64,000 bases of DNA from assembly GCA_905178155.1 (NCBI GenBank), contig CAJINV010000007.1:672898-736897 (forward strand). Reading direction: 5' to 3'. Origin of the DNA: Amoebophrya sp. A120 (Eukaryota > Protista > Dinoflagellata). Position numbers and translations under genes: made by a program. Shown here piece after piece: positions 2,669 to 63,900 of the stretch (the first letter of the stretch is position 1; every line of letters begins with the position of its first letter). The notes under the pieces are model-generated. The model made no database searches. It worked only from the letters and a program-made list of their open reading frames with translations, and had not been told where the DNA came from.

Positions 2669-5600
2669 ATGCCGTCGCCGGCGAAGAGCTTCAAGCAGCC
2701 GCGGGTGCACGTTCCCGGCGCGTCGCCGCCCACGAAGCGGTTGCACACTGCAGCTTCGGGAGTTGGAGCAGCTGCTTCCGGAAGTTGTATCGCCACTGGA
2801 GCAGGAGCTCCTGCGGGCGGGGCCATCATCTTCGACGCACCAACACCCGCGAAGAACTACGGTGCAGCTACTACCTCGAAAATGAACCTGTTCGGGGCGG
2901 GACAAGAAGCTGTGCCTGCTGCAGCGGGGTCGTTGTTCGATCAAGATTCTTTATTCGACGCTGAGATAGCGCTGGCTCTTCAGGTATCAAATGTAAAACT
3001 GTCTGGGTCTGGAAGTTTGGAACTTGTGATGCTGGCTTTGGACTCTAAGAAAATCTGTATTGCATGGCCAGCAAGAGGGTTCCAGTTTGTGCTACGCGGG
3101 GAGGGCGTTTGTCATGCGGAATTATAGGCATCAGGAAGCCTTCTAGAAATCTGCGATGCAAGATCATGCATTACAGGCATCATGGGTCATGTAAAACAGG
3201 CATGACAAACCTTGCATTCTTCCAGACCCAGACATTTTTGCATTTGATATCAGGAGCACCAGCAGGAGGATGTGGATGATGTGCTCATGCAGGAGCAACA
3301 GAACAACAGCCACGTTCTGCAGCAAACAAGAGCATCATCTTCTTCGTCCTCTTCTTCCTCTTCGGGCGCTAATATCATCAAAAATCCCGCATCGGCATCC
3401 TCTTCCTCTTTCGGTGCAAGCAGCTTGTTCCACCAGCACCAGCGGCGACCACAGTCTGCTGGCGCTGTCAACGGCAACATCTTATCTGCCGGAAATAGCA
3501 ATTTACAACTTGTCACCAGAAATGCTGCGACGCTGAATAACTTCAATCTCAACGGGTTGCGGATGAACCAGCCGGCGCAGGGAATTCTGTCACGGAACAA
3601 CAAAGATAAACCGTTGCGGGACGAGTTCGGGGAGTTGGAAGAGGAGGAGGACGACGATGAGGGAAACAAAAGCGAACTCGAGGACTTCGACAACGATACT
3701 AAAAATAATCTCTCCACCGACGAGGTGGAAGAAGAAGATGAAAATGAAAATCAAGCCTTGCAGCTGCTGGCCGCCGACGGTTTGCAAGGTGATCTTCTCG
3801 AAACAACTTCTACCAACGAAAACGAGGAAAACCTAAATCACAACCCCTTCACCCACCTTCCGATTGCGGACCAGACCGCAAAACTCCCCGCGAAGAGACC
3901 CACGGGACGCAACGTTTTGCGCCAGGGAGACGAGGGCTTCAACCAGTTCTACCGGCAATGGCTGCGGGAAAAAGGGATCATCAACACCAGCGGCGCAGAC
4001 AACCACATGGTCAACGGCGTAGTACAGCAAGACGAGTTATCTACTTCTTGCAAACCGCTGCCGCAGCAGGCTGTGGTTCTGGCCGGTCTCCGCTCGGGGT
4101 TCACGCCGAAAATTTTGGTAGACCACAGAACCGGCGCCGGAAAGACCAGAACGATGATTCAAGTCATCGACGAGTTTTTTCTTTCCCCGAACCCGAAGGT
4201 GGTCATCGTGCCGACGGACAACATTCGCCGGAATTTCCTGCTCGAGTTAATCCGCTGGCCCTCGAAGTGGAGAACCTACTGGGCGGCGGAGAACCAAGAG
4301 TTTGCCCGGACTGCTGCGAGATCGAAGTCTTGGGCGAAGAGGCTCGATCAGGAGTGGACCAACCCGAAGCGGGAGATGATTTCTTCCATGGAGGCCGCGA
4401 TCGGCATGAAGTCCTTGATTCGCAACGGCCAAATCCGCGACGGCTTCGCGGAAAAATTCATCGAGCGGTTTCCCCAGGTTTGCTTCCCCAAAGCGCCGGT
4501 CCGGGTCCTGAGCTACGGGTGCGCGGGCGGCATACGGATTGCAACTATGTCTGGGTCTGGAAGAGTGGAACTTGTAGTGCTCTCTGCGGATTCTAGAAAT
4601 ATCTGTGTTGCATGAGCAGCAAGAGGAGGCAGTTCTTGGCACGCGGAGAGAGCATTTCTCATGCGTGATTAGTATCAACATGCTCTCAAAAAATCAGTGA
4701 TGCTAGCACCAGCATCACAGACCTCACGGGTCATGCAAAATGTGCATGACAAGCCCCGACTCTTCCAGACCCAGACATTTTTACATTTGATACGGCAGTG
4801 CGATGAACAAGAAGAATCCGGACGTCATTCTCCGGTTTGGAAAGAAATTGCCCCCGAAGGTGAAGAGCGCTGACGGATCGAAGAAGCAGGAACAGGATTG
4901 GTCGGACCAAAATCTGTACGACAACACGATTGTCCTCCTGGACGAAGCGCACAATGCGGTGAAGGAGCAGTCCCAGTACCGCGCGCAATTGGAAAAACTC
5001 TGCGACGCTTTGAAGCGAACGAACGAGAACACCCGCGTTGTCTTCCTCACGGCCACGCCCGCGCCCGCGGTGAGCGGGAATCAGGCCGTGAATGGGAGAT
5101 CATCTGTGAACCCGCAGAAGTTGTTGGATTTGGTTAAAGGACTACGAGACGTGCTCCTGAGCCGCAACAACGAGGGCTACGTGAGCCATTTTGATGGCGT
5201 TGCCGGGTTCCCGAAAATTCTGACCACCAAGCGGTACAAGTACGGGCTGGGTTTCCAGGAGTCGGCCATGGGGACGGTTGGCAAACTGCCCTACCGGGTC
5301 GCGAACGTGGTGCGCGTGCCGATGGGCAGCGGGGTCTACCTGCGATACCTGCGGACCTGGATGGCTTTATCCGATCACAACAGCCTGGGCGACCCGGCTT
5401 CGAAAAAACGGCTGCTGGCGCGCGGGGTGGTCTGGATGCCGCCGCTATCAAATGTAAAAATGTCTGGGTCTGGAACAAGGCAAGTTGTCATGCTAAATCT
5501 GGATTATGTAAAAATCTGCGTTGCGTGATTACCAAAAGCTGTCCACTGTTGACCTAATCGAGAGGCAGTTTCTCATGCAGGATACGCATGATAGAACTCT

Positions 5601-8600
5601 CACAGAATCTGTCATGCTCTGTCCTACAGACTAGAGCTCATGGGTCATGGAAAACCTGCATAACAAGTCTGGCATTCTTCCAGACCCAGACATTTTTACA
5701 TTTGATAGCCGCAGAGCGCGTCGCGGGAAGACCAGAAGGCGAAGCTGCTTACCGCGGATGAGTCCAGTATGGGAGTGTCAGAATCGAAATCAACAAAATC
5801 GAAATGATTTGTGATGCATAAAATCGATACCACTTGGAGCCTCAGTTTCCACGTGGCGCATGACAAATTTCGGGAGCGCCAAAATCCAGTCTGTCGTGCT
5901 GTTTAGGCAAAGAACACTGCTCCTGTCGTGCTACTCTGGCAGCGCATCTTCTTCCCCTAAACAGGTTCACAATCGGTCTCATTTGCCTACTCCCCAATAC
6001 AGGCCTCCAGTGCCCTACATTTTATGCATCACAAATTTTTCTTTTTTGTCGATTTCGACCCTGAAACATCCATATCCAGCATCGAGGCGTTTGCGTCGAA
6101 GGTGTATCGTGTGGGGGACCGGGTGAGGGAGATGGAGTTGAAGGCACTGGTATATCCTGTGTAAAAACGTCCCCACCCCAGAGTTGTAACTGTGCTTTGT
6201 TTTGTTTTTGGTTTTTTTCAGTACATAAACACCCCAGAGGTGTAATGCGAATCTGCGTGGTTGAAATGTTTCTCATGCGAAGACGCATGAGAAGCTTTTT
6301 CTAGTGGTGTTTTGAGATTTGTGATGCCCAAATCAGCATGATAAACTGGATCTGTGATGCTGCTGCACTAGCTAAACGTGGCTACATTACTAGCCCAAAT
6401 TTGTCATGCGCAACAGCCAAAGCTTGATGATTTGTGTAGCAGCTTTCCCATCTTGACTATGGGGTGGGGACGTTTTTACAAATGATATGGCGTTGGTGTC
6501 CAAGCAGCAGGGGTTCAACACGGTCGTGGACATTTTGGGCGAGATGGTCGGGAAAAATCGGGTATCAAATGCAAATATGTCTGGGCCCGGAAAGATCGAT
6601 GGAACTTGTAATGCTAGTCCTACATGCCTGTAAAATCTGTATTGCGTGACCAACCAGAAGACGCCTTCTTTTGTCATACAAAAGCGCAGCAGGTTCTCAT
6701 GCGGGCTGCGCACCATGAGCAAGTATAATTGCGCAAATAACTTGTCATGCTTGGCTGAATTGGGAAATCTTTCAATCATCCACAGCTCAGCATCACAAGT
6801 TTCCAGACATCTAGACATATTTGCCTTTGATATCGGGTCCTGTCCTTGCGGGAGAAGTCGCAGGTGGCCGGCACCATGGAAAAGTTCAACGCGGACAACA
6901 ACTTGTTCGGGCAAAAATACCTCGTGCTTGTGGCCGACACGGACACCTGCGGGGAAGGCGTCAGCTTCATGAGCGTATTGTTTTGAGACAGAACTAGAAG
7001 AAGCACTGGTGATTTTTTTGTTGTTTTTCCTTCTCGTCAACATGATGACCAATTGCGAGTGCAGGATTTTTAATGTTGTCCAATTTTGGACTCAAAATGA
7101 AAATTCTCTTTGTCGTAAATGAGAAGATATATCAAAATCACTTCATCATCATCACAGGTCCGTGAGTGTCACCTATTGACGATTCCGCAGTCTGTCAACG
7201 ACTTTTACCAGTGGTTGGGGAGATCTAACCGCCAGGGTAGTCACAAGAAGTTAGACGCCGAAGATCAGGACCTCGAGTACTTTTATGCATTGCAAAAAAG
7301 TTCCTGCACTGCTACCACAACATACTTCCACCATCTTCAATGCATTTTTACAGACGAAAAACTTCCGTCTGCCCAAATAACTCACTCGAACAGAGCAACC
7401 TATCGTGGTCAGTCAAGGCTGGTACTGCTATCACAACCACTTCGACTTCCGAACCACTGCATAATATGCAGTGGTTCGGAAGTCGAAGTGGTTGTAACAT
7501 TTTTGCACAGCATAATCCCCTGTACGTGGCTACCTTCCCGCGAGACTGGAAACCCAGCACTCTGTCTGTGAAAAAGCGGACCTTCCTGCGGTCGGCGTTT
7601 ACGGGGGCGATCCGGGACAAGACGGGTATGCATTGCAAATATGTCTGGGTCTGGAAGAGTGCAACTTGTGATGCTAACTTTGGAAGCTAAAAAAAATCTG
7701 CATTGCATGACCAGCAAGAGGTGGCCTCCAGTTTGTGCTGCGCCGGGATGGCATTTCTCATGCGGAATAGGCATCAGGAAGCCTTCTACTAAAAATCTGT
7801 GATGCTAGGTCATGCATTACAGGCGTCATGGGTCATGCAAAGAAGGCATGACTCTTCCAGACCCAAACATATTTGCAGTTGATAACGGGCAAGGCCGAGC
7901 GAAACCTGCTGAAGAACGTGAACAAGCTCGACATATGCATTCTGCAAATGTGTCTGGGCCAGGAAAGACGCGATTTGTGATGCTAATTTTCGATCACGCA
8001 AAAATCTGTATTGCATAAAGCAGCAAAAAATAAAGGCACTCAGATTGGTGCCACCCTGAGCAGACGAGGGCCCTTCTCATGTCGGCTAGGCATGACCAAC
8101 CCTTCGCGAAAGCTCCTGTGATGCCCGAGCATGCATCACAGGCGTCGCGGGTCATGTACAAGTTGCATGACAAACCCCCCCAACAAGCTCTTCCAGACCC
8201 AGACATGTTTGCATTCGATACGACAACGCCTTCGAGTCGTCAGCGGAGTTGGGCAAGGCGGTCCGGCGGGTGCAGAACATCCGGAAGAAGCACGACGGCG
8301 ATTTCCTCGAGCACTACATCGATGCGGAGAAGGAAAACCTCCCCGGAATGCGACTTTTGAACGAGATGGAGATGCGGTCCGTTTCCCACCAGTCCAGTGC
8401 CTGTCTCGCGTACCTGACCCAGACCGAGGACGAGAAGTCGCTTGCCGTCCTGCGGTATCAAATGCAAATTATAATATGTCTCGGTCTGGAATAAACTTGT
8501 GTTGCTGATACTTGCACTGCAGACTGACTGCTTGTACGGCGTAACAGCATGAGAAGTTTATTTTCTGCTCAGTGCGAATCCATTCGTACTTAGCATTGCA

Positions 8601-9269
8601 AACTGTCATGGACAAAAAATTGGCCGAGTCGCATTTTATGGATCACAAATGATCATTGTCGTCCTTCTTGAAGTTGTCCCGCATCACAAACCCAGACCCA
8701 GATCGATATTTGCAAAGCATATGCGCGGCCAAGTGACCCGGTTTGAGAAGTTTATGAAGACCTGGCGCGAGGGGGCGGCCTTCGACTACCACGGCGTGTA
8801 CGAGGAAGGTGTAGAAGCAGCTGTTGCAGCGTATGACCTGCTCAAACGTTACAATCTCAAGCGTTACAATAGAATTTGGAAATCTGTGATGCAAGAAGTG
8901 CATAATCTAGCCAAGTCGCATAGGACTGCGCATGACAAGTTCCGGAGTCCCAAACCGCACTACAATCTGCCGAAATTTGTGTTGCAAGAAGTGGAGTGGT
9001 CTGCGAGTCTGTCATGCTCATTATGCAACACAAATGCCAGATTCTATTGTAACGTTTGAGATTGTAACGTTTGAGCAGGCCATACAGCAGCAGCTCCGGT
9101 CCAGGTGGTCGCGGAAGTAAACGGAATGGTGAACGGGCTGCAGGGAGGAAGAGAACGTGGGGAGCAGGAACAGTCCGCGGGACAAGGAGAAGAACAATCC
9201 AGCCACGACCAGCCGCAGTTGGACAGCGTGGTCGCTCTGATGCGGGCCATGCAAAAGGAAAACTTCTAG
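2669..9269 (+). CDS. SF2 DExH helicase, poxvirus/NCLDV D6/D11 (VETF/NPH-I)-like; ~1122 aa, 13 exons
   Basis: Exons 2669-2984, 3255-4532, 4798-5445, 5713-5767, 6080-6152, 6493-6562, 6838-6974, 7158-7283, 7520-7626, 7890-7933, 8226-8455, 8727-8831, 9090-9269 join in frame (3369 nt). Motifs: HRTGAGKT (I), LLDEAHN (II), FLTATP (III), GEGVSFMSVRECHLL (V), QWLGRSNRQGSH (VI). Confidence 0.85.
2985..3249. mobile_element. Introner, TIR family A (TATCAAATGCAAAAATGTCTGGGTCTGGAAG)
   Basis: ~30-bp TIRs; DR TCAGG/TCAGG; element+5 nt removal keeps frame; also GT-AG compatible. Confidence 0.9.
4533..4792. mobile_element. Introner, family A
   Basis: DR CGGCA/CGGCA; joins ORFs 3272 and 4803 in frame. Confidence 0.9.
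5446..5707. mobile_element. Introner, family A
   Basis: DR GCCGC/GCCGC. Confidence 0.9.
5768..6074. mobile_element. Introner, family B (TATGG..TCAG..TCGAAATC)
   Basis: Imperfect TIRs; DR TCCAG/TCCAG. Confidence 0.85.
6153..6487. mobile_element. Introner, family C (TATCCTGTGTAAAAACGTCCCCACCCC)
   Basis: TIRs; DR TGGTA/TGGCG; frame restored (KALVLVSKQQGF). Confidence 0.85.
6563..6832. mobile_element. Introner, family A
   Basis: DR TCGGG/TCGGG. Confidence 0.9.
6975..7157 (+). other. Canonical GT-AG intron
   Basis: GTATTG...CACAG; joins GEGVSFMS to VRECHLL. Confidence 0.8.
7284..7514. mobile_element. Degenerate introner with internal palindrome
   Basis: TATGCATTGCAAAA...TTTTGCACAGCATA; DR decayed (ACTTT/ATCCC) but element+5 removal gives EYFLYVAT. 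Confidence 0.7.
7433..7495. repeat. Perfect 31-bp inverted repeat with 1-nt spacer
   Basis: ACAACCACTTCGACTTCCGAACCACTGCATA-A-TATGCAGTGGTTCGGAAGTCGAAGTGGTTGT. Confidence 0.95.
7627..7884. mobile_element. Introner, family A
   Basis: DR ACGGG/ACGGG. Confidence 0.9.
7934..8220. mobile_element. Introner, family A
   Basis: DR CGACA/CGACA. Confidence 0.9.
8456..8721. mobile_element. Introner, family A (diverged)
   Basis: DR TGCGG/TGCGC. Confidence 0.85.
8832..9084. mobile_element. Introner, family D (TATGRCCTGCTCAAACGTTACA)
   Basis: ~48-bp near-perfect TIRs; DR CAGCG/CAGCA. Confidence 0.9.
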
Positions 9270-39262: not shown

Positions 39263-40975
39263 GGGAGGTCCTGCAAATTTGCTGAGGAACAGGAACACAT
39301 ATAGTGGTTGACAGCGTGGCGCAATTATCTCAACAACCGATTTAGCTATTGCAGTTTTATTTCCAAGAATAAAGCAGCAAAATCCTTTACGCGCAGCATA
39401 AGCAATCTGGCCTTTCTAGTTGTCGCTTTGCACTTGAAAGTACCACGTAGCTACTATGGAGTTTTGCTTTCGTGCTGCTATTTTTCGCACTGAAGTACTT
39501 ACTTATTTTCCTTTTCGTACCAAACAGAAACACTTCTTTGCTGACGCAGTCGGTCATTCACATTCTGGCGGCTTCGCAGGCAGTTCTTGTTCCGCAGATT
39601 TTGGTACTAATTCTAGCGCATGAAGTGCCACATCAAGATGAATCTCCTTATCAAGAACTTGAACTTTGAAATAAATAGCTTGGTCACAGTCACATTTAGA
39701 CAAAACAACAGAACGCAGACATGCAGCAACCTCATTTTTTTTGCCGAGATGTATCTACTTCGTGTGCTACTTCTGTCTCTGTGTCAACATCGTGTGTTCC
39801 ACCCTCGGACCACAGAGCTTGTTGATGTTGCTGAGCGAGAAAGCAGAAAATCTTTGAGAAGTAGTCGCACTATTGAAGCACAACGCAAACGCCAGACCCA
39901 GAAAAACTGACTGAGAGTCTTGCTTTCTCTACTTGGGATCTTCGAGATGGATATTTTGCAAAATCGCATTAGTTACACACGATGAAGATGAACCCGATGG
40001 ACGGGCCCATCGATCTTCCACTTATTTGTCACTCAATCTCTTGCCACCTGCTTGTGATTTTGCTAAAGGTAGTACAGGACAGTTGTCAAGAACCCGATGG
40101 ATCATCATCATATGTAGCGACGCCACAGCTGATCTCAATTTATTAACTTAGCCGTGATATGAATTATCGTGGCAGAAACGAAATAAACGATGGAAATCAT
40201 ACTTCTGAAAAATGCAGGATGGCCAGGCAGTGGCTGCACCCACTAGCTACTGAGAATCGAAGAAGCTCCTGCGGTATCTTCGTCTTCCCTGCCACACTGC
40301 TGCATCTGCCCGCTAGCCTGGGTGCTTAGAAGACTTTGCAGGTGAGACTACTCAGGTGGTCGTAGAAGTGTCGACAGCCTGCGAAAATCCACGAAGATCC
40401 AACCACGTTCGTTGTTTTCGTCTTTTTCTCTCAGCAACGCGTAAGAGGAGACACTACAACTTGGCCAGCTATGGCGACTGTTGCAGGTATTGTCACACTT
40501 GATGATCAATTGCTTGCCTGTATGGAGCGGCCCATGTTGTCATGCAAAAAGAACTGTATGAAGATGAACAAGCCTTATAGTTATATATACGAAGCCCATT
40601 CTTGATTTGTCCGACACCCAATTTGAATTTTCTTGTTCAGGCACTACGTGTCGAGTTTTTAGTCCTCTGCGTTTTTACTCTAGTTAGAAAGATTCACAGT
40701 AGAAATTAGTTTTTTTTAGTTGTACGCACGCATTTATTTCGCTTGTATACCTCATTCTGATGGCGTTGTCACCTCGCTCAAAGCAACGAGGGCTTTGCTC
40801 CGCCCGGATGAAGAGGCGTACAAATTGTCAAACAAATATTTATTCGCCATCTGTACTGATCTGTTTTTTTTGATACAGTTCTACCCTCGCGTTGGTCCTC
40901 GCCGACGCATACTAAGATAGTTCTGCTGTACCCATCTCTAGTACTTGTACCCGCATTTATTTTGCGGCAGACAAG

Positions 40976-46900: not shown

Positions 46901-49900
46901 TAATGCTGCGTTGGGAATGGTGAATGCTCTGTAATGCACAGGCAAGCATGAGAAATATCTGCGCTTCTTTGTGTTGCGTTTTTCGCATGACAAACTGCGT
47001 TTTTGCATGACAGGCAAAAGGGTCTCTTCTTGGACACGCATCACAAACTTTCTGGTCATGCCAGAAAAGCATGACAAATCTCAAAATCTTCCAGACCCAG
47101 ACATTTTTGCATTTGATATTTTCACCCCGATGACGACAAAATTCTCGAGTACAACCAGGAGGAGGGAAAGTATCAAATGCACATACGTCTGGGTCTGGAA
47201 ACTTGTGATACTGGGTGGCGATCATGATTGAACATACTCCTGAGTGCGACCAAGCATGACAAATTTTGCGGAAACTTTCTCATGCGTAGTGTGCATGAGA
47301 AACTGCGCTTCTGCATGACAAAGGAAGGCTCCTTTTCCTGGTCATGCAATACAGATTTTACAGGAATCCAAGTCACGCAATACAGGTTCCACTCTTCCAG
47401 GCCCAGAAACTTTTGCATTTGATAGGAAGTGGATTGAACCCAAACTTTTCTGCCCGGTCATCCCGATGGTGCTAGTCAACGGCGCGGAGGGTATCGGGAC
47501 CGGTTGGTCGACCTCCATCCCGAATTACGACCCCAGAGACGTGGTGGAGAACTGCCGCATCTTCATCAAGCGACACTTATTGAACACGAAGCACAAACGA
47601 TCGAAATCGAAGCAGCAGAGTGTCGTGGAAAACGAGAACGGGGACGTGATAATGGTGGATGACGATGATGATGATAAGGATGCTATCCTAAGTAAAAACG
47701 TCTCCACCCCATAGTCAAGTTGGGAACTTTGCAACACAAATCCACCAGTTTTGCGACTCACGCATGACAAACTTTCCCCTGTATTGTAGAGCGGGTTAGC
47801 AAGGAAAGCTGCATCACAAATCCATCTCTTGATCTTGTTTACAGCATTACAAATGCCAAAACACGACCGAAAGTGCCTCTTATGGGGTTGCGCATGGCAA
47901 TTGTTTCTGTTATTGCGAATCTGCATGACAACTCTGGGGTGGGGAGGGTTTTAAACAGGATAGATGCCGAGCAACAGAATGCGAATCTTCCGAATTACAT
48001 CGAGATGAAGCCGTGGTTCCGGAATTTTCGCGGGGAAGTGCGGGGGAAGTCGGGCGCGAAGAATTTCACTACGGAAGGGTGCGTGTCGGTCACAGTCCAC
48101 GAAGATGGATCGAGCACGGTGGAGATCACGGAACTTCCGATCAGAGTGTGGTATGCATTGCAAAAGAATCGTACAACTTTACTACGTGGTAATTGCATTT
48201 ACAAATTAGCCCAGCATGACGACAAGTCAGTGGAATTTGTCATGCAGATTCACCTTGGGAAGGGGGTTTGTAATGCGTGACTGCGATTACATTTAATTTA
48301 CTACCAGTGCGATACTTTTACAATCCATATGTGGACGCAGGCTTACAAGGAGAAGTTGCTGAAAATGATCAGCGACGACAAGCATGGAATCCGGGATTTT
48401 AGAGAGTATCGAAAAATGTCTGAATTTTTGGTGATGTAGTTTCCTGTCACGCATAATTATATTGGAGAAAAACTATCTCTATCGCGATGAAGTTGATTCG
48501 AAAAACCATCGCGAGTGCCGCAGCCGAGCATCCTTGGTTTCAGGGTTTTAGGATTTAGGGTCTCTGCTCCCGACTTCGCTGTGCCGCATCGAGCTGCACC
48601 ACGGAGTAAGTAAGTAGTTGTTTCGCAATGAAAAGACAAATAAAAGCCTCGTCCTAAATCACAGGCACCACACCGATGTCACCGTCCACTTCTCCATCGA
48701 CTTGACCGAGCCGGGGCAAGTGCAGGCCGAGGCTGCGGGTTACATGAAGTACTTCGGTCTGTCCTCCTCACTCGCTACCAGCAACATGATGGGTTTCAAC
48801 AAGGAGCACAAGATCTACAAGTACGACAGCCCCCTCGACATCGTGAAGGAATTCTGCGGATTCCGGGTGGAATTTTATCAAAAACGGAAGAAATACTTGC
48901 TCGACAAATTAAAACAGTCCGAATGCGAACTGGAAAACCAGCGCAGGTTCGTGTTAGCCGTGGTGAAACGGGAGCTGATTGTCCGGAAGCGGAAAATTGC
49001 GGACATTTTACAAGACTTGCGAGCCATGAACTTCGTGACAAAGTCGGTTTTGAACTCTATGGCGGCGAGATCCGAGCGGGAGGAGGAGGAAAACGCGGAA
49101 AAGGATGAAGAAAACGAAGATAACGACAACGACGGCGACAATAACGACCCTGGTTCCGACGACGAGGCGAATGAGGACGATGAAAATAATCGGGCCAGTA
49201 ACAACGCGGCAAACAATGCGAGGAAAGAGTACGACTACTTGCTCGGCATGCCGCTGTCCTCCCTGACCACCGATAAGGTGAAGGAACTCGAGCAGACGTA
49301 CAAGGGAAAAGTAGCGGAAAGGGAAATCCTCGAGAAGAAATCCGTCGCGGATCTGTGGCTCGCGGATTTGGACGATATGCATTGCACAAAATATATCTGG
49401 GTCTGGAAGATTGCCAGATTTGTCATGCTTGTCTGACATAGCTCGGAACTCTGTCATGCGTAGGTGCAAAAAGATCGCTTTGTCTGTGATGCAAAAGCGC
49501 AGTCTGCCATACGGAATACGCTACACGTAGCAGGAGCCCAAAAACTTGTCATGCTTGGCCACGTATGACAGTGTGCCCAGTATCTATTCCCTGGCTTGCA
49601 TCACAAGTTTCCAGACCCAGACATACTTGCAATGCATAGACGAGATCATGGTGCAATTGGACGCCGAAGACGCTTTTTACGACGCGGAATTGGCGGAAGC
49701 GCGGAAACAGCAAGAAAAGGCAATGGGGTTCAAAATCGGCGGTGCGGCTGGGGATAATAAATCGAAGATGGCCAAGAAATTGAAGAAGAACAAAGAAGGA
49801 GGTGGAACATTAAATAATGCAGGAGATCATGACGACAACAACGACGCTCCCGGTGAGGACAAGAAGCCGAAGGCGCCGAAGATGAAAAGGAAAATTAAGG

Positions 49901-52212
49901 AAGAAGGTGCGGAAGGTGCTGCAAACGACCAGGACCCGGACCTAGCTGGTGCTGGCCCCGCATCCCAACTGGATGATCGAGCCGTTTCAGGAGATCTTCA
50001 AGCCGCGGAAGACCCAGCTGCGGGTGGTGCTGTGGACAAGCCGCCGAAAAAGAGAAAAATGAAGAAGGAAAGATTACTGCCGGCGGAGGACGAGGAAAAT
50101 GATGAGACGAACGAGGAAATAAATGCTGGTCCATCTTCAAAGCCGCCTGTTGCTGTTCCTCCTCCTGCTGCTGCTGATCAGGATGTGAAAATGGAAGTAG
50201 ATCCTCCTGCTCCGGCGACGTCAAATGCGATAAACTACGACGACGGCGTTCTGAGGAACGAAGACGGGACGGTGAAATTGAACAAAAACGGCAAACCCGC
50301 CATGAAACGCGGGCCAGCACCGAAGAACAAGCAGATGAGAGATATCAAATGTAAAAATGTCTGGGTCTGGATGTGGAAGAGTGCATGTTTGTCGTGCTTG
50401 TCTGGCATGACTCTCAAATCTGTCACGCACGTTACCCAAGAGCGCCACTTTTCTGTCATACAGAAACGCAGTTTGTCATGCAGAATAGGCAACACCTAGA
50501 AGCTCAGAAACTTGTCATGCTGAGCCAGCAATTGTGGCTTCCTCATGATACGCCACACAGCATCAGAAGTTTCCAGACCCAGACATATTTGCAGTTGATA
50601 AAAGAAGATTCCAAGCAAGTATCTGCCTCGGTCGAAGCGAGTCTAGAAGGGAGTAAGAAGCCAAGTAAAGAGGCATCAAGTAAAGCTCCTACTTCTTCCC
50701 AGCAGGACAACATAGAGCTGACGAAGAACGGTGTGCCGAAGAAGAAGCCAGGCCGGAAGCCGAAGCAGGATCACAATGTCGAAACGAGTAAAAATGCAGA
50801 GGAGAAGACCTCTTCCATCCAACCCTCGCCCGCAGCGGGAGGCGAGCAACAAGAAGCTGTTAAGAAAAAGCGCGGCCGGCCGTCGAAGGACGAGTTACTG
50901 GCCAAGACGAGGCAGGGGAGTAAGGAAAAAGAAAACAGTGGCGAGAACGAGGAAAATCACCGAGCGAAATCTTCAAAATCCAGCAAGGCGCCGGTACAAA
51001 ACGACGACGACGAAGAGGATCACCCCCCGGCTAAGAAGCAGAAGGTAAAGAAGGAGAAGAAGAAACTGTCGAAGGAAGAAGTACCTGTAGTACTACCTCC
51101 TGGTATGCAGATGAAAGAGTACACGTACGAAGATTACAAAAAGTTGGAAGACGAGGAAAACTCGCTGAAAGGGCAGCCCCGACAGACCCGGATCACGAAA
51201 AATCGACTGCATGAAATCGAGAAAGAGAAAAAGCGAATCATCTCCTCCGGCTGGAAATTACCAGTTGCGGTTGTTTCAACGACTGCTGGTGGTGGTGGTG
51301 CAGCAGCTCCAGCAGCTGCGCTAGGCGCTGGTGGTCCTGCTGCTTCCTCTTCTTCTTCCTCCTCTGCGGCCATTTCAAATCCAAATCCGGTGATGCTTTT
51401 AAACCCGGACGTCCTCGGTGGCGGCGCACCTACAATTTTTTCAACGTCTTCCGGTCCTGGTGCAGCAGCAGCCCCAGCCACTGAAGGCCCCGGACGAGCA
51501 GGTGTCGTGGGCAGTAGTGGTAGTTCCTCCTCGTCTTCCTCCGCCGCGGGAGGTGGACAACTACCACCACCGCCAGCTGCTTTTGTACCCGACGGGGGCG
51601 CAGCAAAGCCAGTGTCCATCCCGATGAAGATTTTACGGAAGGAAGATGGGAGGAAGAAGAAGGATATCAACTGCAAAAATGTCTGGGTCTGGAAGATTGG
51701 AACTTGTGATGCTAACTCTGGACTTTAAAAAAATCTGTAATTGCATGACCAGCAATAGGAGCCCGGTTTGTGCTACGCGGGGAGGGCATTTGTCATGCGG
51801 GATAGGCATCAGGAAGACCTCTAGAAATATGTGATGCCAGACCATGCATTACAAACGTCGTGGCTCATGGAAAATATGCATGACAAATCTAGAAATCTTC
51901 CAGACCCAGACATTTTTACATTTGATAAAGGAAAACAATAAACCTGCGGGCGGGCTGAACATTCCCGGGAAGGGGGCGGTGCCAAAGCTAACCGGACCGA
52001 AGGCGAAAAAGAAGAAAAATGAGGGCGGTGTGGCAGGCGGGGATTTGTTGCAGGAAGGAGGGCGGGCTGGTGCTGGGCAGATGAAAGAGGAAAAGCAGGA
52101 AGATGGTGCCGGCAATGATAAACAGCCGGAACAAACTTCTTCGAGCAAGGAACCGGTGAAAGAGGAGGCTGCAGGTGATCCGGCTCCGGAAGCGGCTGCG
52201 AAAGAAGAGTAA
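40976..52212 (+). CDS. TOP2: DNA topoisomerase II, ~2076 aa, 22 exons
   Basis: After splicing (6231 nt, in frame): YQKLSLHEHILLR, FKIFDEILVNAADN, GGRNGYGAKL, PKLEDAN, TLILTEGDSA, PLRGK, MTDQDYDGSHI, YYKGLGTS, DGFKPTQRK, YHHGE, catalytic SRY, LVNGAEGIGTGWST; long K/E/A-rich C-terminal tail. Confidence 0.97.
41154..41424. mobile_element. Introner, family A
   Basis: DR TGACT/TGACT. Confidence 0.9.
41486..41746. mobile_element. Introner, family A
   Basis: DR ACAGT/ACAGT. Confidence 0.9.
41857..42120. mobile_element. Introner, family A
   Basis: DR TGTTT/TGTTC; restores PGLFKIFDE. Confidence 0.9.
42244..42562. mobile_element. Introner, family F
   Basis: DR TCAGG/TCAGG; GT-AG compatible. Confidence 0.9.
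42667..42794. mobile_element. Introner, family E (128 bp)
   Basis: DR CTTGC/CTTGC. Confidence 0.9.
42887..43168. mobile_element. Introner, family C
   Basis: DR CTCGA/CTCGA. Confidence 0.9.
43611..43850. mobile_element. Introner, family I
   Basis: DR AATTT/AATTT. Confidence 0.9.
44482..44640 (+). other. Canonical GT-AG intron
   Basis: AG|GTACAA...TATCAG|G. Confidence 0.8.
44691..44945. mobile_element. Introner, family A
   Basis: DR GCTCG/GCTCG; restores PKLEDAN. Confidence 0.9.
44999..45244. mobile_element. Introner, family D
   Basis: DR GTTGA/GTCGA; restores CTLILTEGDSA. Confidence 0.9.
45793..45959 (+). other. Canonical GT-AG intron
   Basis: Restores YYKGLGTS. Confidence 0.9.
46310..46447 (+). 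other. Canonical GT-AG intron (stop-free, 138 nt)
   Basis: Restores IKVAQL. Confidence 0.85.
46630..46818 (+). other. Canonical GT-AG intron
   Basis: Restores SRYIYT at the catalytic Tyr. Confidence 0.9.
46866..47118. mobile_element. Introner, family A
   Basis: DR TTTTC/TTTTC; restores IFHPDDD. Confidence 0.9.
47171..47424. mobile_element. Introner, family A
   Basis: DR GAAAG/GGAAG. Confidence 0.9.
47684..47962. mobile_element. Introner, family C
   Basis: DR GATGC/GATGC. Confidence 0.9.
48152..48329. mobile_element. Introner, family E
   Basis: DR TGTGG/TGTGG; restores ELPIRVWTQAYK. Confidence 0.9.
48406..48664 (+). other. Canonical GT-AG intron with TIR-like 5' end
   Basis: GA|GTATCGAAAAATGTCTG...CACAG|G restores DFREHHTD. 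Confidence 0.8.
49376..49638. mobile_element. Introner, family A
   Basis: DR GACGA/GACGA. Confidence 0.9.
50343..50600. mobile_element. Introner, family A
   Basis: DR AGAGA/AAAGA; close copy of 44691-44945. Confidence 0.9.
51665..51927. mobile_element. Introner, family A
   Basis: DR AAGGA/AAGGA. Confidence 0.9.
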
Positions 52213-55844: not shown

Positions 55845-55920
55845 AGTTGTTTTCGTTCACGGCAGTTGTTTTCGTTCATGGCAGTTGTTTTCGTTCACGG
55901 CAGTTGCTTTCGTTCACGAC
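55845..55920. repeat. Minisatellite, 19-bp unit x4
   Basis: AGTTGTTTTCGTTCACGGC. Confidence 0.9.
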
Positions 55921-56424: not shown

Positions 56425-59400
56425 ATGCTGCTCGCCATTTGGCTGAGGCTATTCCTGCGTGGTCCTGGTTCTCTGCTTCTTGCATCAGTGCAGTTGCAGT
56501 TGCTCTCGTCGTCGTCCATCCTAGCCGGAGTTTTGCTATATCATGTTCATCCCATTTCTAATTTCGCCTTCGCAGTCCACCTCGTGCCTCCAGCCAGCGA
56601 GGGAACAACTGGTGGAAGTACTACCGCTGGTAAAAACGGTTCATCAGCAACAGCAGCGTCAACATCTTCTACTCCTGCCGGAGATGAAGTAGATCAAGAT
56701 GTTGACGATAGGGATAGCCACGCCGTCGGGGCCCGGTCTTCCACAGAACAAACCACGCTGCTGCAGCAGGGACGACCGCGACCAGATGATGAACGAAGGG
56801 ACTACACCAGAGCTGGGAATCATGTTGGTACAGGCGTTGCAGCCCCATCTACTGTCGCGGAACAAGCAGTCCTGGACTACGAGTCGGGAGGGGAGATTAT
56901 TTCCTCGTCTTCTTTCAGACGGGAGGAAGATGGAGCATTCGAATCTTCTTCTTCACGAGGCCGGCGCTCCTCTGTTGCTAGTGCAGCTCCTCGCCGCGCA
57001 CCAGCGTGGTCGTCCACCTCTTTTACATTGATGAGCATGATACCGGTCGGCGGTGCTGGGGAAACAACGAATCAGAATTCTAGCTCTGAAGACGAGGAAA
57101 ATCACAACGAGGATGGCGACGATGTTGTTGTTGATGTTGTTGAGCACGACCACATGGATGATGAAAACATGCTGGCTACAACTAGAAGCACTTCTGTAGA
57201 TGACGCCGGAGAACTTGTACATGAAACAACGCCAGATGTAGTCGCAGTTGTGCCGAGCAGCCCTGGGACCGTGAGCCACGAACTCGTCACAGCAGATCAT
57301 GCAGAAGATGAAGATGAAGCTGGTGTCACGACGACAATCGTCTCGCCGGATGATGATGATGATGATGCGTCTGCTCGCTTTCCGTTTGATTTCACAACCG
57401 ATGTTCACGAGCCTGAGCAAATGGAGGACAAACCTCCCGGGGGTGGATTCCTGCAAAAAGCTACAGCACCCCAAGAACAACTACACCAACGGCGACAGAA
57501 GAAGATCGAAAGGAAGGCATCAGCGTATGCCAGCGAAGCAGGTCCACGACCATGGATAAAACAGACGAAGCTTGGACGGTCGAAAATGAGCGCAGAACAA
57601 CAGGTACAAGTAAAAGCTCAGGTGTTACACAACCCTGCTTTGACGATGGCACCCGAGGTGAAGGACTACAAACTAGTACAACCAGAGGGTACAACTTCTG
57701 GAGCACCACATCAGGAGGGACCACGCACCGGTACTAGCGCCTCCTCGTCTTGTTGCGATGAGGATGATGGCATCAACGATGCGAGAGTGAACGCCACGGA
57801 CGGAGGTCGGGGAGTCGCCAGGCTGCAGCAAACAGAACGGAAACTCGTGCGCAAGGTCCGCACCACTCCGACACTACTTTTTTACAAGCGGCTTCGCGAC
57901 AGCGCCGATGATCGAGATCACGAGAAACACGGATTGAATCGGACGAGAATAGATCCGATCTATCTTCTATCCTATGGAAAAACGTCCCCACCCCAGAGTC
58001 ATCAAGATAGGGCTTTTGCTACACATCAAATCAGCAAGCTTTGCCTGTTGCGCATGGCAAGCTCGGGTCTCTAGTGTAGTTGTGTTTATTGGCTAGTGAT
58101 GCCGCATCACAAATCCTGCTCCCTATCCTGAGTAGAGCATGACAAAGTACTAGAAAGCATGAGAAAGCGCTGCTCAACATGGTGTTGCGCATGAGAAACA
58201 ATTTAGGCTTGCAGGTTATTTGCATGACAACGAACTCTGGGGGCGGTGGGGACGTTTTTACTTAGGATATCTTTATAAGGCTAGCACGCACGTTCTAAAG
58301 GATCTAGACACAATGGGGCTCGACAGAAAAATCCAGGCCGCTCTGGACGAGACGCCGACCTTGGCGCTCTCGGATGTGGTATTCGATTTGCGGATGAGCG
58401 ACACGCTGAGAGCGGTGTACGAAGCCCGGGAAAAGGAAGATTTGCACAAGTACCGCAACGTGCGGGACCCCGCTTTAAAAAGGGAGAAGGTGAGGCCGTG
58501 GAAATGTGTCCAGTTTTTGCACTATCAAATGCAAAAATGTCTCGGTCTGGAGGGTTCTAAACTTGTAATGCTGTCTCTGGATTCTGAAAAAATTTGTATT
58601 GCGTGACCAGCAAGAGAGCTCCAGTTTGTGCTACGCGGAGAGGGCATTTCTCATGCGGCAGAGGCGTCAAAAAGTCCTCTAAAAATCTGTGATGCTAGGG
58701 TATACATCACAGACATCATGGGTCATTCAAAATATGCATGACAAAGACAAACCTGGTAGTCTTCCAGACCCAGACACTTTTGCATTTGATATGCAGCAGG
58801 TGTCCACGCGGGATGCCACGCTGAGCAAGAAGGAACACCACAACGAAGTGGTGCACATTCGGGGTGAAGATCTCTCGTATCCTAAGCTGTGGAAAGGAAA
58901 GCAACTGCCGTGGGAGATGCGCCTGTACCGCGGGAAGGACGTGCGCATGGGGAGTTGCGAAGAGTGCGGCATTGTGTGGGACCCGCCAGTATCCACAGTA
59001 AATTTCCCGTACACGTACAAATGCGGTCTCTGCATGACAAAAATTGGCTTTGATCCTAGTTTAGCATGACAAGTTTTACTCTCCAAATTGGTGAAGTTTG
59101 TGATGCATCCTGTACATGTACGGGAAATTTGTATTGCATAGCCAGACGACAAGATGTCTTGCGTGGAAACCTACAAAGTCGGGCTGCGGGGAGAAGAAAC
59201 GCTGCTAGAGTACTCCACCTACTACCTCATCAACGAAGAGACGAGGGCAGCGGACTGGTTCAACGTGAAACTATGCATTTTTGCAAATGTGTCATCTGGG
59301 TCCGAATCATGCAAAAATCTGTGTTGCATGATTAAGTACCAATAATGCTGTCCACTTTTGAGCAAAGCCGAGAGGCAGTTTCTCATGCGGAAAAGGCATG

Positions 59401-60836
59401 GTAAAGATCTCACAGAATCTGTGAAGATGCCAGGAGATGCATCTTCACAGACCTCATGCGTCATGCAAAACGTGTATGACAAATGTTGCACTTCTTTTCT
59501 AGACCCAGATCGATATTTGTATTTGATAGAAACTGCTAAAAGACGACGAGCAGCTCCGTCTGGACGTAATTCAACTCGCCGACCAAGATATGCACTGCAA
59601 AAGTATCGTACTAGTACAAATCGCAATACAAATTGGCTCAGCATTACAAATTAAATTTGTAATGCGGATTTACCTAACCAACTAGATTTCGATTTGTGAT
59701 GTATAACTGCGATTACTATGAGTACGATATTTTTGCACAGGATACAAGAGAGCGGAGGCTGCAGCACGTGCTGTTGTGTCGTGGTCACCTTGGTGGTGCT
59801 CCTCGTGGTGCTCATTCTCGCGATAGCCGCCTACCTTTACTTCTACCGTTGGGGGGATGGGGATGCCTGGGAGCACGAAATGGACAACGAAGATTTAGAC
59901 AAGGCTAATACGGATGACGAGAACATCAATACAGAGGCAGATACTAGCCTGAGAAGTCTTCACGGTCAGGACCCTGAGGAGGCCGAGCAGCTTGGGAACA
60001 ATTTTGACAGTGAAATAAACGACCGCAGTGGACAGGATCATCGGGGTCGTGGTTTATTCCAGAACAAAATGCCCCTGCCCTCCCCGCCGCCGGGATTTTC
60101 TTTGGCCCCCGAAAACGGCAGGAATTTGATTTTCTCCCCACCGGTCAGCAGTTACGAACAGATACAGAAACTGCAACGAGAACAGGGCGTGGGTACGACG
60201 AAAGTGGACGAGGATGCGAAACAAAAAATCATACCGCAAGTCGTCCACGTCCAGTCCGCGGCGGAGAATGTGTTTTACGCGCCAACCACAATCGAGCCCA
60301 GCATGAACACAGAACCGAGCTTGACAAGCTTCGTGCCGCCTTCCGGCCTTGCAGGAGTCCCTGGGTCTATCTTCGCCGCCGGCGCGCCACTGTCAGGTCG
60401 TGGGGGATATGAAGAAGAAGAAGAAGCGCCAGGAGTAGCAGCTCTAGCGCTAGGTGGGCAGCCTGTTGAAGAAGAAGTAGACCATGGGTCAAAAAAAACT
60501 CCACTGTCGATGAAACAGGCGTACGAGCGGACGCGACGAGGGAAGATCGGGTTTGCCTGGGAGGGGGAGCAGCTGCCGTACTATGATGGCGGAGATTTGA
60601 ATTATTTTAACCACGACGGGAGTCGTGCAGTTCTTGACAGCACCTCCTCCTCCTCCTCCTCCCGTGCGAGGCAGGGTGTGCACAAAAACCTGCGGGGGGA
60701 TGAAGAAATTCTGCAAGAGCCATCATCTGGTGCGGGGACGAGGGTGAAAATATTAAACACCCGAGATGAAGAAGAACCATCAACAGGGCAGGCTAGAAGG
60801 AGCAGCGGGAATAGACGGAGTAAAGGCACTGCGTAA
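56425..60836 (+). CDS. Predicted type I membrane protein, ~1083 aa, 6 exons
   Basis: Exons 56425-57967, 58275-58522, 58797-58989, 59146-59271, 59534-59588, 59750-60836 in frame; hydrophobic N-terminus; TM segment CCCVVVTLVVLLVVLILAIAAYLYFY. Confidence 0.75.
57968..58269. mobile_element. Introner, family C
   Basis: DR TCTTC/TCTTT. Confidence 0.9.
58523..58791. mobile_element. Introner, family A
   Basis: DR TGCAC/TGCAG. Confidence 0.9.
58990..59140. mobile_element. Introner, family H
   Basis: TIR core AAATTTCCCGTACA; DR GCCAG/GCCAG. Confidence 0.9.
59272..59528. mobile_element. Introner, family A (diverged)
   Basis: DR GAAAC/GAAAC. Confidence 0.85.
59589..59744. mobile_element. Introner, family E
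   Basis: DR CAAGA/CAAGA. Confidence 0.9.
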
Positions 60837-61740: not shown

Positions 61741-63900
61741 ATGGCCTGTTTTGGTGGAGGCAAGCTGAAAAAGGAGCGCGATGCCTTGGCGCAGCAAAAG
61801 CAGGACCTCGAGGCCAAGGTCGCGCAGCAGCAGGCCGAGGCACAGCAACTGAGGCAGAAGCTGCAGCAGGTTCTTATTTACATTCTTGTTTCACGAATGA
61901 TTTTATGAACTGCAAAAGTATCGTACTCCTACTCGTATAAATGCATTACAAATTTCCTCAGCATGAGAAATCAAATTTGCAATGCGGATTTACCGTAAAA
62001 AAAAGATTTGTAATGCAAGACTTGCATTTAATTATCCAAAAGGCGGAGACCCAAGCCAAAACCGCGAAGACAACCGCTGACGAAGAGAAGGGGCAGCGGG
62101 AAAACGTTATGCATTGCAAATATATCTGGGTCTGGAAACTTGTAATGCTGAATGGCCATGATTCACCGTGCCTTTCAGTGCAGTGCAGCATGACAAATTT
62201 TTCAAACGCTCTGTCCTGCGCAGGACGCATTACAAAGTGCGTTTTTGCAACATGAGGAAAGCGTGGTGCTTCATTTGCTGCTATATGCAATACAGATTTT
62301 TTAGGAATGCGAAACACGCAATACAGGCGCAATCATTCCAGACCCAGACATATTTGCATTTGATAAACGTGCAGAATCAACTGAATAAGGAGTTGACGAA
62401 GCTGCAAAAAGACAAAGACAAGGTGGACAAGAGGATGAAGATTCTCCAGCAGGAATTCACGATCCTGCAAATATCAAATGCAAAAGTGTCTGGGTCTGGG
62501 AGATTCTGAGACTTGTCATGCACGTTTTGCATGAGCCATGATTTCTGTAATGCATGCCGTAGCATCACAGATTTTTCGAGGGGTTCCTGATGCCTACTTC
62601 GCATGACAAATGCCCTATCCGCGTAGCAAAAATTACATTCCCTTTGCTACTCATGCAATGCAAATTTTTTTGGAATCCAAATGCAGCATCACAGGTTGCA
62701 TTCTTCCAGACCCAGACATTTTTGCATTTGATAGCAAACCGAGGCGGACAAAACCATCCAGCAATACGCGATAGGGGATTTGTATGCTCTGCAAGAAAAG
62801 TATCGTAGTACTAATCGCATTCATGCATTACAAATCTGGTTCCATATTAGGCAAATCAGCATGACAAATTCCATTTGTCATGCTGAGCGAATTTGTATTG
62901 CAATCACTACTAGCGCGATACTGTTCCAGTTCATAATTTGCGGAAGAAACCCTTTCTGCTCCTTTTCGAAGCCTACGACGGCGACAACGGGACCTTCCTG
63001 GGGGAGCAGCTTCTCATCGGAACGGGCGAGTTCGCGCTAATGGACCGCGCGGTGCACTCTCGCTACGACGTATGCAAGAAGAAAACTGTGGAAGTGTAAC
63101 TCTGTAATGCAGAATATGGAAGAGAGTTACATCTGTCATGCCAGACAGCCATGAAGTCCTCGTTCCATGTCAGTGTTTTCCCTTACAAGCCGCGCATGAC
63201 AGGTTTTTTCTATGATCATGTAGAGCAAATCTGTGATGCTGTCAGCCACAGAAAGTTACACTAACACAGTTTTTTTCTTGGATACGACGCGAGTAAGGAA
63301 CAAGCTTCCGCCAGCAAAAATCCGACGCGAAGGATACACGTGGTGTGTGAAGAGAGCAACGACCATATCCAGGAGAAAAACTGTGTTAGCGTAGGTGCTT
63401 TGGTGGAGTGATAGCATGACAAATTGGCTCTGCGTGACTTCTGATCGAGCCTGTCATGTTGCACAACTAGTACGTGAAAAGGAAAACGCACATGGAAACA
63501 AGTGGACTGCATGGCTGTCTGGCATGACAAGTGTAGCTGTGTTGGTTTTTGCTGCATTACAGAATTACAATTCTTAGGCAGTTTCTTTCTTGCATAGACC
63601 AGCTCGCGGTCAGATCCCTGTACCAAGAAGGCGGATCCAGTAGCTCCACCGCGTTTTCGCCCCCCTTGGCCGGCGGGACGTCTGCGAGCAGTCCACCGCC
63701 CGGGACGAACAGCAACAAAGTCGACTACCATTCCGTGCTCTACAAGGTTTGGCTGAAGCGGGGCAAGATGACAGCAAAGAGTGGAGCAGCAGCGGGAGGT
63801 TCTGCTGGCACGGAGCAGCCATTAGATTCGGAGCAGGAGCAAGACGAGGGGAAAGAAAAGCCCGCTGTATGGGAGCAAGTGGCGATGGAGCACAGCGAGA
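61741..63900 (+). CDS. Coiled-coil protein with possible C2-like segment; 3' partial
   Basis: Exons 61741-61869, 62043-62107, 62371-62471, 62739-62782, 62941-63070, 63290-63365, 63602-63900; MACFGGGKLKKERDALAQQKQDLEAK...; LLFEAYDGDNGTFLGEQLLIGTGEFAL. Confidence 0.7.
61870..62042 (+). other. Canonical GT-AG intron containing a truncated family E element (from 61904)
   Basis: CAG|GTTCTT...AAAAG|GCG; TATGAACTGCAAAAGTATCGTACTC at 61904 without a right TIR. Confidence 0.7.
62108..62365. mobile_element. Introner, family A
   Basis: DR AACGT/AACGT. Confidence 0.9.
62472..62733. mobile_element. Introner, family A
   Basis: DR GCAAA/GCAAA; inverted copy of 38686-38947. Confidence 0.9.
62783..62935. 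mobile_element. Introner, family E
   Basis: DR ATTTG/ATTTG. Confidence 0.85.
63071..63284. mobile_element. Introner, family G
   Basis: DR CGACG/CGACG. Confidence 0.9.
63366..63596. mobile_element. Introner, family G
   Basis: DR GACCA/GACCA. Confidence 0.9.

Follow-up and report, generated by a model that had tools for sequence, protein, structure and literature searches.

How introns without the usual GT and AG ends are removed, and where exactly they are cut, is the question raised by a 64,000-nt stretch of the Amoebophrya sp. A120 genome (GenBank assembly GCA_905178155.1, contig CAJINV010000007.1, positions 672,898 to 736,897 of the forward strand; hereafter the window). Its coding sequence is interrupted by 60 elements that carry terminal inverted repeats (TIRs), start and end with TA, and are flanked by 5-bp direct repeats (DRs). 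They belong to the introner elements described earlier from Amoebophrya sp. A120 (Farhat et al., 2021; PMC7789003), a class that the original prediction had recognized as already described. The identity follows from two observations. The gene at 56425-60836, spliced by removing each element together with 5 nt, encodes a protein identical at 1083/1083 residues to the annotated A120 protein P0121, and the element ends fit the published 'TAT + 7 nt + AAA'. Tens of thousands of such introns must be removed, and earlier work left the mechanism and the position of the cut open. We found that a single register, with cuts 1 nt upstream of the left TA and 4 nt downstream of the right TA (1+4), fits both junctions at which the cut is placed exactly.

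The elements were located in several scans and are named here by their first position. A strict scan, which required TA..TA ends, a perfect 5-bp DR and a TIR identity of at least 13/20, yielded 34 elements, whereas five Markov-shuffled sequences gave 0-1 apiece. Looser scans, combined with inspection of the flanks, brought the total to 60, spread from 2985 to 63596. They comprise nine TIR types plus one eroded copy, and type A accounts for 31/60, with 26 in a single interior-similarity cluster and five with A-like ends. The counts agree with those first predicted (60 elements, about nine families, 31 in the largest). Elements measure 124-364 nt, apart from one of 2833 nt that holds a nested retroelement. 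As claimed, TA is found at both ends throughout: the 5' end is TAT in 57 and TAC in three, and the 3' end is ATA in 60/60. The 5-bp DR also stood, but it is perfect in only 42/60 (of the others, 16 match at 4/5, one at 3/5 and one at 1/5). Removing element plus 5 nt leaves the frame open at 59 junctions checked by script and at 35339, where the flanks were read by eye, so the predicted restoration of the frame holds everywhere. GT-AG ends can be read in just four of the 60, again as predicted, and all four are in the 1+4 register. All 60 elements lie within coding sequence (~21.9 kb) and no intact one in ~24.2 kb of non-coding DNA, sizes that rest on gene bounds estimated in this analysis. Targeting or differential loss may lie behind this coding-only placement.

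Transcripts were examined in runs X3-X6, which are assembled contigs from two samples of one study. Their RNA status is guessed. They also drop GT-AG introns and therefore behave as spliced transcripts. In these contigs, element plus 5 nt is missing at no fewer than 23 of the 60 sites (at least 11 directly and 12 by summed length) and nearby GT-AG sites are not used, the outcome expected from the original prediction. Between 6076 and 9300, 7/7 elements are skipped as element plus 5 nt in 4/4 runs, and a GT-AG intron is missing from these contigs as well. The regions compared with the contigs hold 33 of the 60 elements. In the TOP2 gene, four elements fall between adjoining contig pieces and 12 fit gap sums of 548, 98 and 1137 nt. 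The sum of 1137 was predicted directly; the predicted 835 and 349 become 548 and 98 on subtraction of the slice's last element (287 and 251 nt, respectively). Five further elements agree with an annotated A120 protein, an annotation that is not independent of the published pipeline. The raw RNA run X9 placed 41 partial reads out of 3.3 million on the window and was counted as no evidence.

The host genes give a second view of removal. TOP2 and the helicase-like gene are untranslatable with the elements in place. After removal, TOP2 aligns gap-free with five homologs at the element junctions within conserved regions (the nearest named TOP2, in a search limited to proteins of up to 2000 aa, is that of Amoebophrya sp. 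A25 at 73%), and the helicase motifs match Pfam DEAD/ResIII. The claim that removal rebuilds conserved motifs is upheld for these two genes; in the ProX-like gene, the tRNA_edit match is weak (a 31-aa exon, E 0.027, below the cut-off).

The exact cut can be read only at certain sites. A perfect DR lets the cut slide over six positions, and a DR mismatch pins it. At 6153 (TGGTA/TGGCG), the RNA joint runs from 6151 to 6492 with zero slide in 4/4 runs, which gives an AT..GC intron. At 7284 (ACTTT/ATCCC), it runs from 7282 to 7519, also with zero slide in 4/4 runs, which gives a TT..CC intron. The single register that fits both is 1+4. Six mismatched sites are compatible with it: at 8456 and 8832, the base at DR position 5 in the RNA comes from the right copy; the bases at DR position 3 (44999) and position 2 (50343) come from the left copy; and the annotated protein carries the right-copy position 5 at 57968 and 58523. 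It is likely that the 1+4 cut applies at all element sites. The split of the 5 nt runs along the direction of transcription, and the RNA-supported sites include type A elements in both orientations. Element 7284 is cut exactly with one of five DR bases matching and no internal motif, indicating that neither DR identity nor the motif is required. The cut likewise depends on neither G at +1 nor a 3' AG. The original prediction of one rule with a fixed 5-nt offset across families is therefore kept as removal of element plus 5 nt and refined to 1+4, but the duplication itself is unnecessary. At 7934, a spacer behind TAT that is 2 nt longer leaves the cut unmoved. At 8832, where there is a GT donor, the majority form passes over CAG acceptors on both sides of the used site, 1 nt upstream and 2 nt downstream. 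At 47171, an AG 1 nt past the used site is likewise unused in the majority form.

The cut position is new here, while the element class, the 5-bp DR and the TA/TA ends are already in print. In Farhat et al., the A120 inverted repeats (IRs) consist of TAT, seven variable bases and an A-run, the DRs measure 3-5 nt with a 5-bp example, and the 'IRs located 1-5 nt from the splice sites' leave the border position unknown (PMC7789003). The elements in the window share with these the organism, the TAT-led IRs and A-run, the 5-bp DR, a size of ~240-260 nt and removal backed by RNA-seq. There is no difference in kind, and the accessible parts of that paper give no signature that spans families. Our analysis adds the 1+4 register, independence from the DR, a constraint on the terminal TA and a shared internal motif. 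The register, DR independence and the motif were not found in the literature searched, chiefly non-subscription articles as text without figures, nor in the available text of PMC11282704, PMC9860276 and PMC12005148.

Related loci show which positions are constrained. A search by TIR pattern returned 145 loci, 634 kb in all, where members of the same families occur at 70-94% identity. In these, 444 elements were called and 433 tested; 246 were oriented by a coding model and 187 were dropped. In the oriented copies, the DR bases are at background, G is found at +1 in 73 (background 32%), the 3' end is AG in 20, GT-AG occurs in seven, and covariation between +1 and -1 is absent (p 0.14). The window has T at +2 in 60/60, G at +1 in 22/60 and an AG 3' end in 7/60. 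Two other patterns in the window were rejected: G enrichment at DR positions 4-5 (22/60 each) is gone in the 246 related copies, and a mismatch excess at DR position 5 (8/18) falls to 10/41 single mismatches there. Families insert in both orientations (type A, 95 vs 62). Among 113 elements with clear flanking frames, 105 require element plus 5 nt modulo 3, including 5/6 with a DR match of 3/5 or less. The terminal TA deviates at 7/1498 sites, compared to 446/13718 at inner conserved TIR sites, in copies whose detection made no use of the last three bases; including unoriented copies, the count is 11/1932. This extra conservation points to selection after insertion. Across 405 elements, TAT is conserved at 98-99% and A at positions 11-13 at 87-94%.

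Further features concern the interior of the repeats. TIR positions 4-7 are unpaired in 38%, compared to 11% at positions 8-14. Variation at the third base, mostly to TAC, is seen in ten 5' ends and three 3' ends. Changes in the length from TAT to the inner TIR are multiples of three in 7/10, compared to 40% of interior indels (p 0.05). A DR of 5 bp is found in 320/435 related elements and one of 6 bp in 0/435, in a pairing that favored 5 bp. There are 12 clusters of at least three copies among 306 elements. Four single copies have unusual boundaries. In L047:6329-6608, an 8-bp duplication leaves one extra in-frame codon after removal of element plus 5 nt, as a fixed ruler predicts, with a weak frame call. 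Three others (L025:5472-5802, L044:354-567 and L047:11612-11883) carry extra bases that separate the DR from the TAT/ATA end (3, 9 and 6, respectively); each number is a multiple of three. Canonical introns called ab initio in the related loci are noisy (17 GTA..CAG out of 113) and no branch motif was found in them.

The elements are DNA transposons of the TA..TA kind, non-autonomous and flanked by a 5-bp target duplication. The 8-mer GCATGACA is common to 21/27 groups, at 3.96 per kb compared to 0.054 outside. A wider pattern, TGTNATGC, which was picked after viewing the data, is found in 26/27 groups and is oriented inward from both ends. It is probably a transposase-binding motif. One integrase-type transposase (Ginger/IS3EU/GingerRoot-like) would act in trans, bind these subterminal TGTNATGC motifs and produce the 5-bp duplication. 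We consider an integrase-type mobilizer likely since TA..TA ends are the hallmark of IS3EU and GingerRoot (PMC10045372, PMC6839031, PMC12730594) and Gozashti et al. (2025) list A120 family 38 as 'Ginger; 5-bp TSD, TA/TA termini' (Dataset sd07; TSD, target site duplication; PMC12130899). IS3EU and GingerRoot share the TAY..RTA termini with the window elements, and are alike also in their GC-rich, non-specific targets and in the integrase-related DDE enzyme proposed here (PMC10045372, PMC6839031); in contrast, their TSD is usually 6 bp, and no autonomous copy was found in the loci searched here. Family 38 shares the TA/TA ends, 5-bp TSD and TIRs, but it is ~810 nt long with Copia/Gypsy-like open reading frames (ORFs), which the window copies lack; the comparison is by description only. 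The dataset labels most other A120 families 'Unknown', puts their TSDs at 2-6 bp and gives mixed splice calls for them (PMC12130899). The mobilizer, left open in the original prediction, is therefore less so, although no transposase was found in the window and related loci. Long TIR-bounded copies, considered as autonomous elements, proved to be short elements with secondary insertions, and 52 unpaired ends gave no obvious long element.

The retroelement nested in the 2833-nt element, of the type without long terminal repeats (non-LTR), has an 873-aa ORF at 35433-38054 on the minus strand (Pfam RVT_1, E 9e-14) and a (TAG)n tail near 35390, and the host type G element keeps an intact DR. No RNA depth was seen over 35433-38054 and no RNA join across 35339-38171. 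Nested retroelements of this kind can mislead classifications such as that of family 38.

For removal, we favor the following reading, at a probability of about 0.5: transcripts lack the A120 introners with a 1+4 cut, and a relaxed host spliceosome removes them, with its 3' cut set by a ruler. The reading is favored because the 5' end N-TAY agrees with the local donor over positions +2 to +4; canonical introns in the window start with GTAY and end with CAG in 7/7 cases. The N-T-A-Y end would be read as GTAY, with relaxation at position +1. The ends would be held together by the inverted repeats, in which pairing is good inward of about position 8 and often frayed at 4-7. The 3' cut would be set by the distance from the terminal ATA and not by AG, and one of the adenosines of this ATA (-7 or -5) may be the branch point. 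As 1+4 adds up to the length of the 5-bp duplication, each insertion would be removed scarlessly in either orientation. The A120 spliceosome retains all but 6 of 89 proteins and U2, U4, U5 and U6 (PMC7789003). In Yarrowia, the branch lies 10 nt or less from the 3' end in 94% of introns (PMC13309789). In Fritillaria, the U2 spliceosome is retunable and handles non-GT/AG introns. As here, Fritillaria borealis has non-GT/AG introns in mass, and a modified U2 spliceosome removes them; unlike here, where any base can stand at +1 and in the last four positions, its intron ends keep signatures (AG/AC, AG/AT, YAY) (PMC13326754). Table S4 of Farhat et al. gives T at +2 for 9/9 predominant A120 non-canonical ends and TT-NN for 9/9 in A25; the former fits the 1+4 register and is unremarked in the accessible text, where gene models are derived from BLAT alignments (PMC7789003).

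Several points weigh against a relaxed spliceosome and an integrase-type mobilizer. The 3' cut ignores CAG neighbors at 8832 and AG at 47171, although canonical introns end with CAG in 7/7 cases; use of these neighboring sites would be expected of an ordinary spliceosome. Position +1 shows no preference for G (73/246 against a background of 32%) and does not covary with -1. The data, which are assembled contigs only, gave no lariat or intermediate. The exact register comes from two junctions in one gene, in two samples of one study. BLAT gap sliding may bias gap placement and could produce the T at +2 in Table S4. The third-base asymmetry between 5' and 3' ends is not significant (p 0.09). G-U pairs are not above A-C in the stems (227 vs 216; 70 vs 75 among rare variants), so selection for RNA pairing of the stem is not demonstrated, nor is guidance of the cut by such pairing, one option in the original prediction. 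For insertion, a DDE/integrase Pfam match was absent from the 126 ORFs of at least 230 aa that were scanned, out of 725 in the related loci.

Some of the same observations fit a separate, non-spliceosomal RNA machine (an endonuclease with a ligase, or a Euglena-like system) that would read the hairpin TA ends of the same elements by the same 1+4 rule. We regard this as possible, at lower odds than the spliceosome, on account of the blindness of the 3' cut to AG even beside CAG, the absence of U1 small nuclear RNA from A120 as reported with the absence of a transposase (PMC7789003), and the Euglena precedent of a motif with fixed spacers. The 246 flanks without G or AG bias and the strong end-to-end hairpins predicted (z -12.3 and -5.9) are in line with it. 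Nonconventional introns in Euglena resemble the elements in their origin from miniature inverted-repeat transposable elements, TIRs, short motif at fixed distances from the cuts and absence of GT-AG, and their authors favor distinct factors; in contrast to the Euglena signature, N3CDG..CH'GN5-6|R, the ends here are N1-TAY..ATA-N4 with no purine rule at the exon start, in an unrelated lineage (PMC12501133). Against a separate machine stand the likeness of the 5' end to the local donor and the lack of G-U excess in the stems, and no candidate enzyme is known. The Mutator-like A120 family 65 (GG/CC ends), also annotated with GT/AT 5' and non-canonical 3' ends, suggests a general host machine (PMC12130899). 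A more specific version is equally tentative: a second splicing code, N|N-TAY...ATA-NNNN|N, without GT, AG or U1, in which both cuts would be measured from the transposon TA ends by a machine distinct from that for CAG introns, with the 1+4 ruler matched to the 5-bp stagger of the transposase. In either case, the elements differ from canonical U2-type introns, with their GT 5' end and AG 3' end.

Two further explanations are far less probable. Ciliate internal eliminated sequences are transposon-derived, have TA at both ends and are removed precisely from coding sequence; one TA is left, and they are lost from somatic DNA. Programmed DNA excision from a somatic genome copy would fit the TA ends and TIRs here and make identical transcripts. 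However, both TAs are removed, the retained 5 nt are a chimera of left-4 and right-1 oriented with transcription, and canonical introns are removed in the same contigs. In DNA run X1, elements 33728, 34363, 38999 and 48152 are entire within single contigs at single-copy depth (27-36 vs 25-38). No joined, element-free DNA form was seen among the 15 joints listed, a weak result given 1456 more and repeat noise. X1 is the only DNA sample compared and possibly the window's own, and contigs conceal rare forms. DNA excision, raised as an alternative in the original prediction, is therefore very unlikely, yet possible in other life stages. We give marginally less weight still to the view that the RNA joints are reverse-transcriptase template switches at the hairpin and DR, or that the true sites are nearby GT-AG. 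A hairpin with a DR is the classic setting for template switching, and the RNA status of X3-X6 is a guess. On the other hand, the joints at 7284 and 6153 share zero bases across the two sides, and the exact cut at 7284 excludes template switching as its explanation. TOP2 and the helicase cannot be translated with elements in place, and same-length GT-AG alternatives at 8456 and 42667 give junctions unlike the RNA and the homologs.

Several additional features are found in the window, and all positions are collected in the table. Within 29331-29385, a 21-nt copy of the DR and left TIR forms a decoy end at 29336, 49 nt upstream of the 29385 end. Readings from 29336 and 29385 both give an open frame, and the 83%-identical homolog P0122 matches the 29385 reading; the decoy end is probably exonic, as judged by this alignment. 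A truncated type C copy (61904-62033), with its right TIR lost, lies in a probable intron at roughly 61870-62042, and one further element copy is cut off by the window end. The eroded element 7284 contains a near-perfect 30-bp hairpin (7425-7500). The TOP2 GT-AG introns at 46310-46447 and 46630-46818 contain TGTNATGC motifs, and the latter opens with a 20-mer that is 18/20 like the type H end; these introns may be old introners turned canonical. Exons between adjacent elements are as short as 14-50 nt, and some exons of 1.5-3 kb are element-free. The gene carrying element 12949 has a tandem repeat of ~39 nt at 12480-12750 that encodes a 13-aa unit. The region 53000-55900, GC-rich and A-rich, differs from the adjoining intergenic DNA and has no clear gene and no Rfam match; an Rfam search of the whole window gave zero matches. 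Two viral-contig matches were rejected as chance 22-mers in AT-rich coding DNA.

Table. Positions of the 60 elements and three host genes in the window. Unless stated, element rows rest on TIR/DR scans, flank reading and an open frame after removal of element plus 5 nt.
Feature	Positions	Strand	Further evidence
Type A, helicase-like gene, DR TCAGG (GT-AG in 1+4 register)	2985..3249	+	
Type A, TAC 5' end	4533..4792	+	
Type A	5446..5707	+	
Type I	5768..6074	+	
Type B, DR TGGTA/TGGCG	6153..6487	+	intron 6152-6491, AT..GC; RNA joint 6151->6492
Type A	6563..6832	+	RNA joint omits 275 = 270+5
Eroded, DR ACTTT/ATCCC (1/5), no internal motif	7284..7514	+	intron 7283-7518, TT..CC; RNA joint 7282->7519
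Type A	7627..7884	+	RNA joint omits 263
Type A, spacer after 5' TAT +2 nt	7934..8220	+	RNA joint omits 292 = 287+5
A-like, DR mismatch position 5	8456..8721	+	joint 8450->8722, slide 4; right copy in RNA
Type G, DR mismatch position 5, GT donor, flanking CAG acceptors	8832..9084	+	joint 8826->9085, non-AG site
A-like, DR 4/5	12949..13258	+	
A-like, TAC 5' end, DR 4/5	15960..16240	+	
Type C	16282..16442	+	
Type D	16475..16796	+	
Type A	16841..17092	+	
Type A, DR CGAGG (GT-AG in register)	17190..17444	+	
Type A	17514..17765	+	
Type A	17819..18080	+	
Type B, DR 4/5	20310..20600	+	
Type A, reverse orientation	26094..26356	+	
Type A, DR 4/5, decoy left end at 29336	29385..29647	+	homolog P0122 agrees
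Type F	29714..29924	+	
Type H	32769..32944	+	
Type E, ProX-like gene	33037..33265	+	
Type D/B ends, DR 4/5	33307..33629	+	
A-like, DR 4/5	33728..34091	+	entire in one DNA contig
F-like, DR 4/5	34363..34647	+	entire in one DNA contig
Type F	34678..34891	+	
A-like, shortest (124 nt)	34911..35034	+	
Type E, DR TCAGG (GT-AG in register)	35083..35293	+	
Type G, TAC 5' end, DR GTCCG, nested minus-strand non-LTR retroelement	35339..38171	+	frame by eye
Type A, DR 4/5	38686..38947	+	
Type C	38999..39170	+	entire in one DNA contig
Type A, TOP2	41154..41424	+	RNA summed length 548; homolog alignment
Type A, TOP2	41486..41746	+	RNA summed length 548; homolog alignment
Type A, TOP2, DR 4/5	41857..42120	+	RNA summed length 548; homolog alignment
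Type D, TOP2, DR TCAGG (GT-AG in register)	42244..42562	+	RNA summed length 548; homolog alignment
Type C, TOP2	42667..42794	+	RNA summed length 548; homolog alignment
Type B, TOP2	42887..43168	+	RNA summed length 548; homolog alignment
Type E, TOP2	43611..43850	+	adjoining RNA pieces ..43605 / 43851..
Type A, TOP2	44691..44945	+	RNA summed length 98; homolog alignment
Type G, TOP2, DR mismatch position 3	44999..45244	+	RNA piece starts 45248; left copy in RNA
Type A reverse, TOP2	46866..47118	+	RNA summed length 1137
Type A reverse, TOP2, DR 4/5	47171..47424	+	RNA summed length 1137; GT..AG 1 nt further unused
Type B, TOP2	47684..47962	+	RNA summed length 1137
Type C, TOP2	48152..48329	+	RNA summed length 1137; entire in DNA contig 47908-49425
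Type A, TOP2	49376..49638	+	adjoining RNA pieces ..49370 / 49639..
Type A, TOP2, DR mismatch position 2	50343..50600	+	RNA pieces ..50339 / 50603..; left copy in RNA
Type A, TOP2	51665..51927	+	adjoining RNA pieces ..51659 / 51928..
Type B, DR mismatch position 5	57968..58269	+	annotated A120 protein Y515 = right-copy base
Type A, DR mismatch position 5	58523..58791	+	annotated A120 protein Q597 = right-copy base
Type H	58990..59140	+	annotated A120 protein
Type A, spacer after 5' TAT +3 nt	59272..59528	+	annotated A120 protein
Type C	59589..59744	+	annotated A120 protein
Type A reverse	62108..62365	+	
Type A reverse	62472..62733	+	
Type C reverse	62783..62935	+	
Type F	63071..63284	+	
Type F reverse	63366..63596	+	
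Helicase-like host gene	2669..9269	+	1122 aa after removing 11 elements and 1 GT-AG intron
TOP2 host gene	40471..52212	+	2051 aa after removing 16 elements and 6 GT-AG introns
Host gene, 1083 aa	56425..60836	+	identical to annotated Amoebophrya sp. A120 protein P0121

With a fixed 1+4 register, the 'signature-less' introns come down to a one-line code that can be checked genome-wide with existing reads. The register indicates where a branch point may be sought, permits correct re-annotation, and accounts for harmless insertion in either orientation. If the register holds without a lariat, it would be the second motif-plus-ruler splicing system after that of Euglena. If the second splicing code is true, any insertion, in either orientation, would become a scarless intron, and host and transposon would jointly turn coding DNA into a free landing zone.

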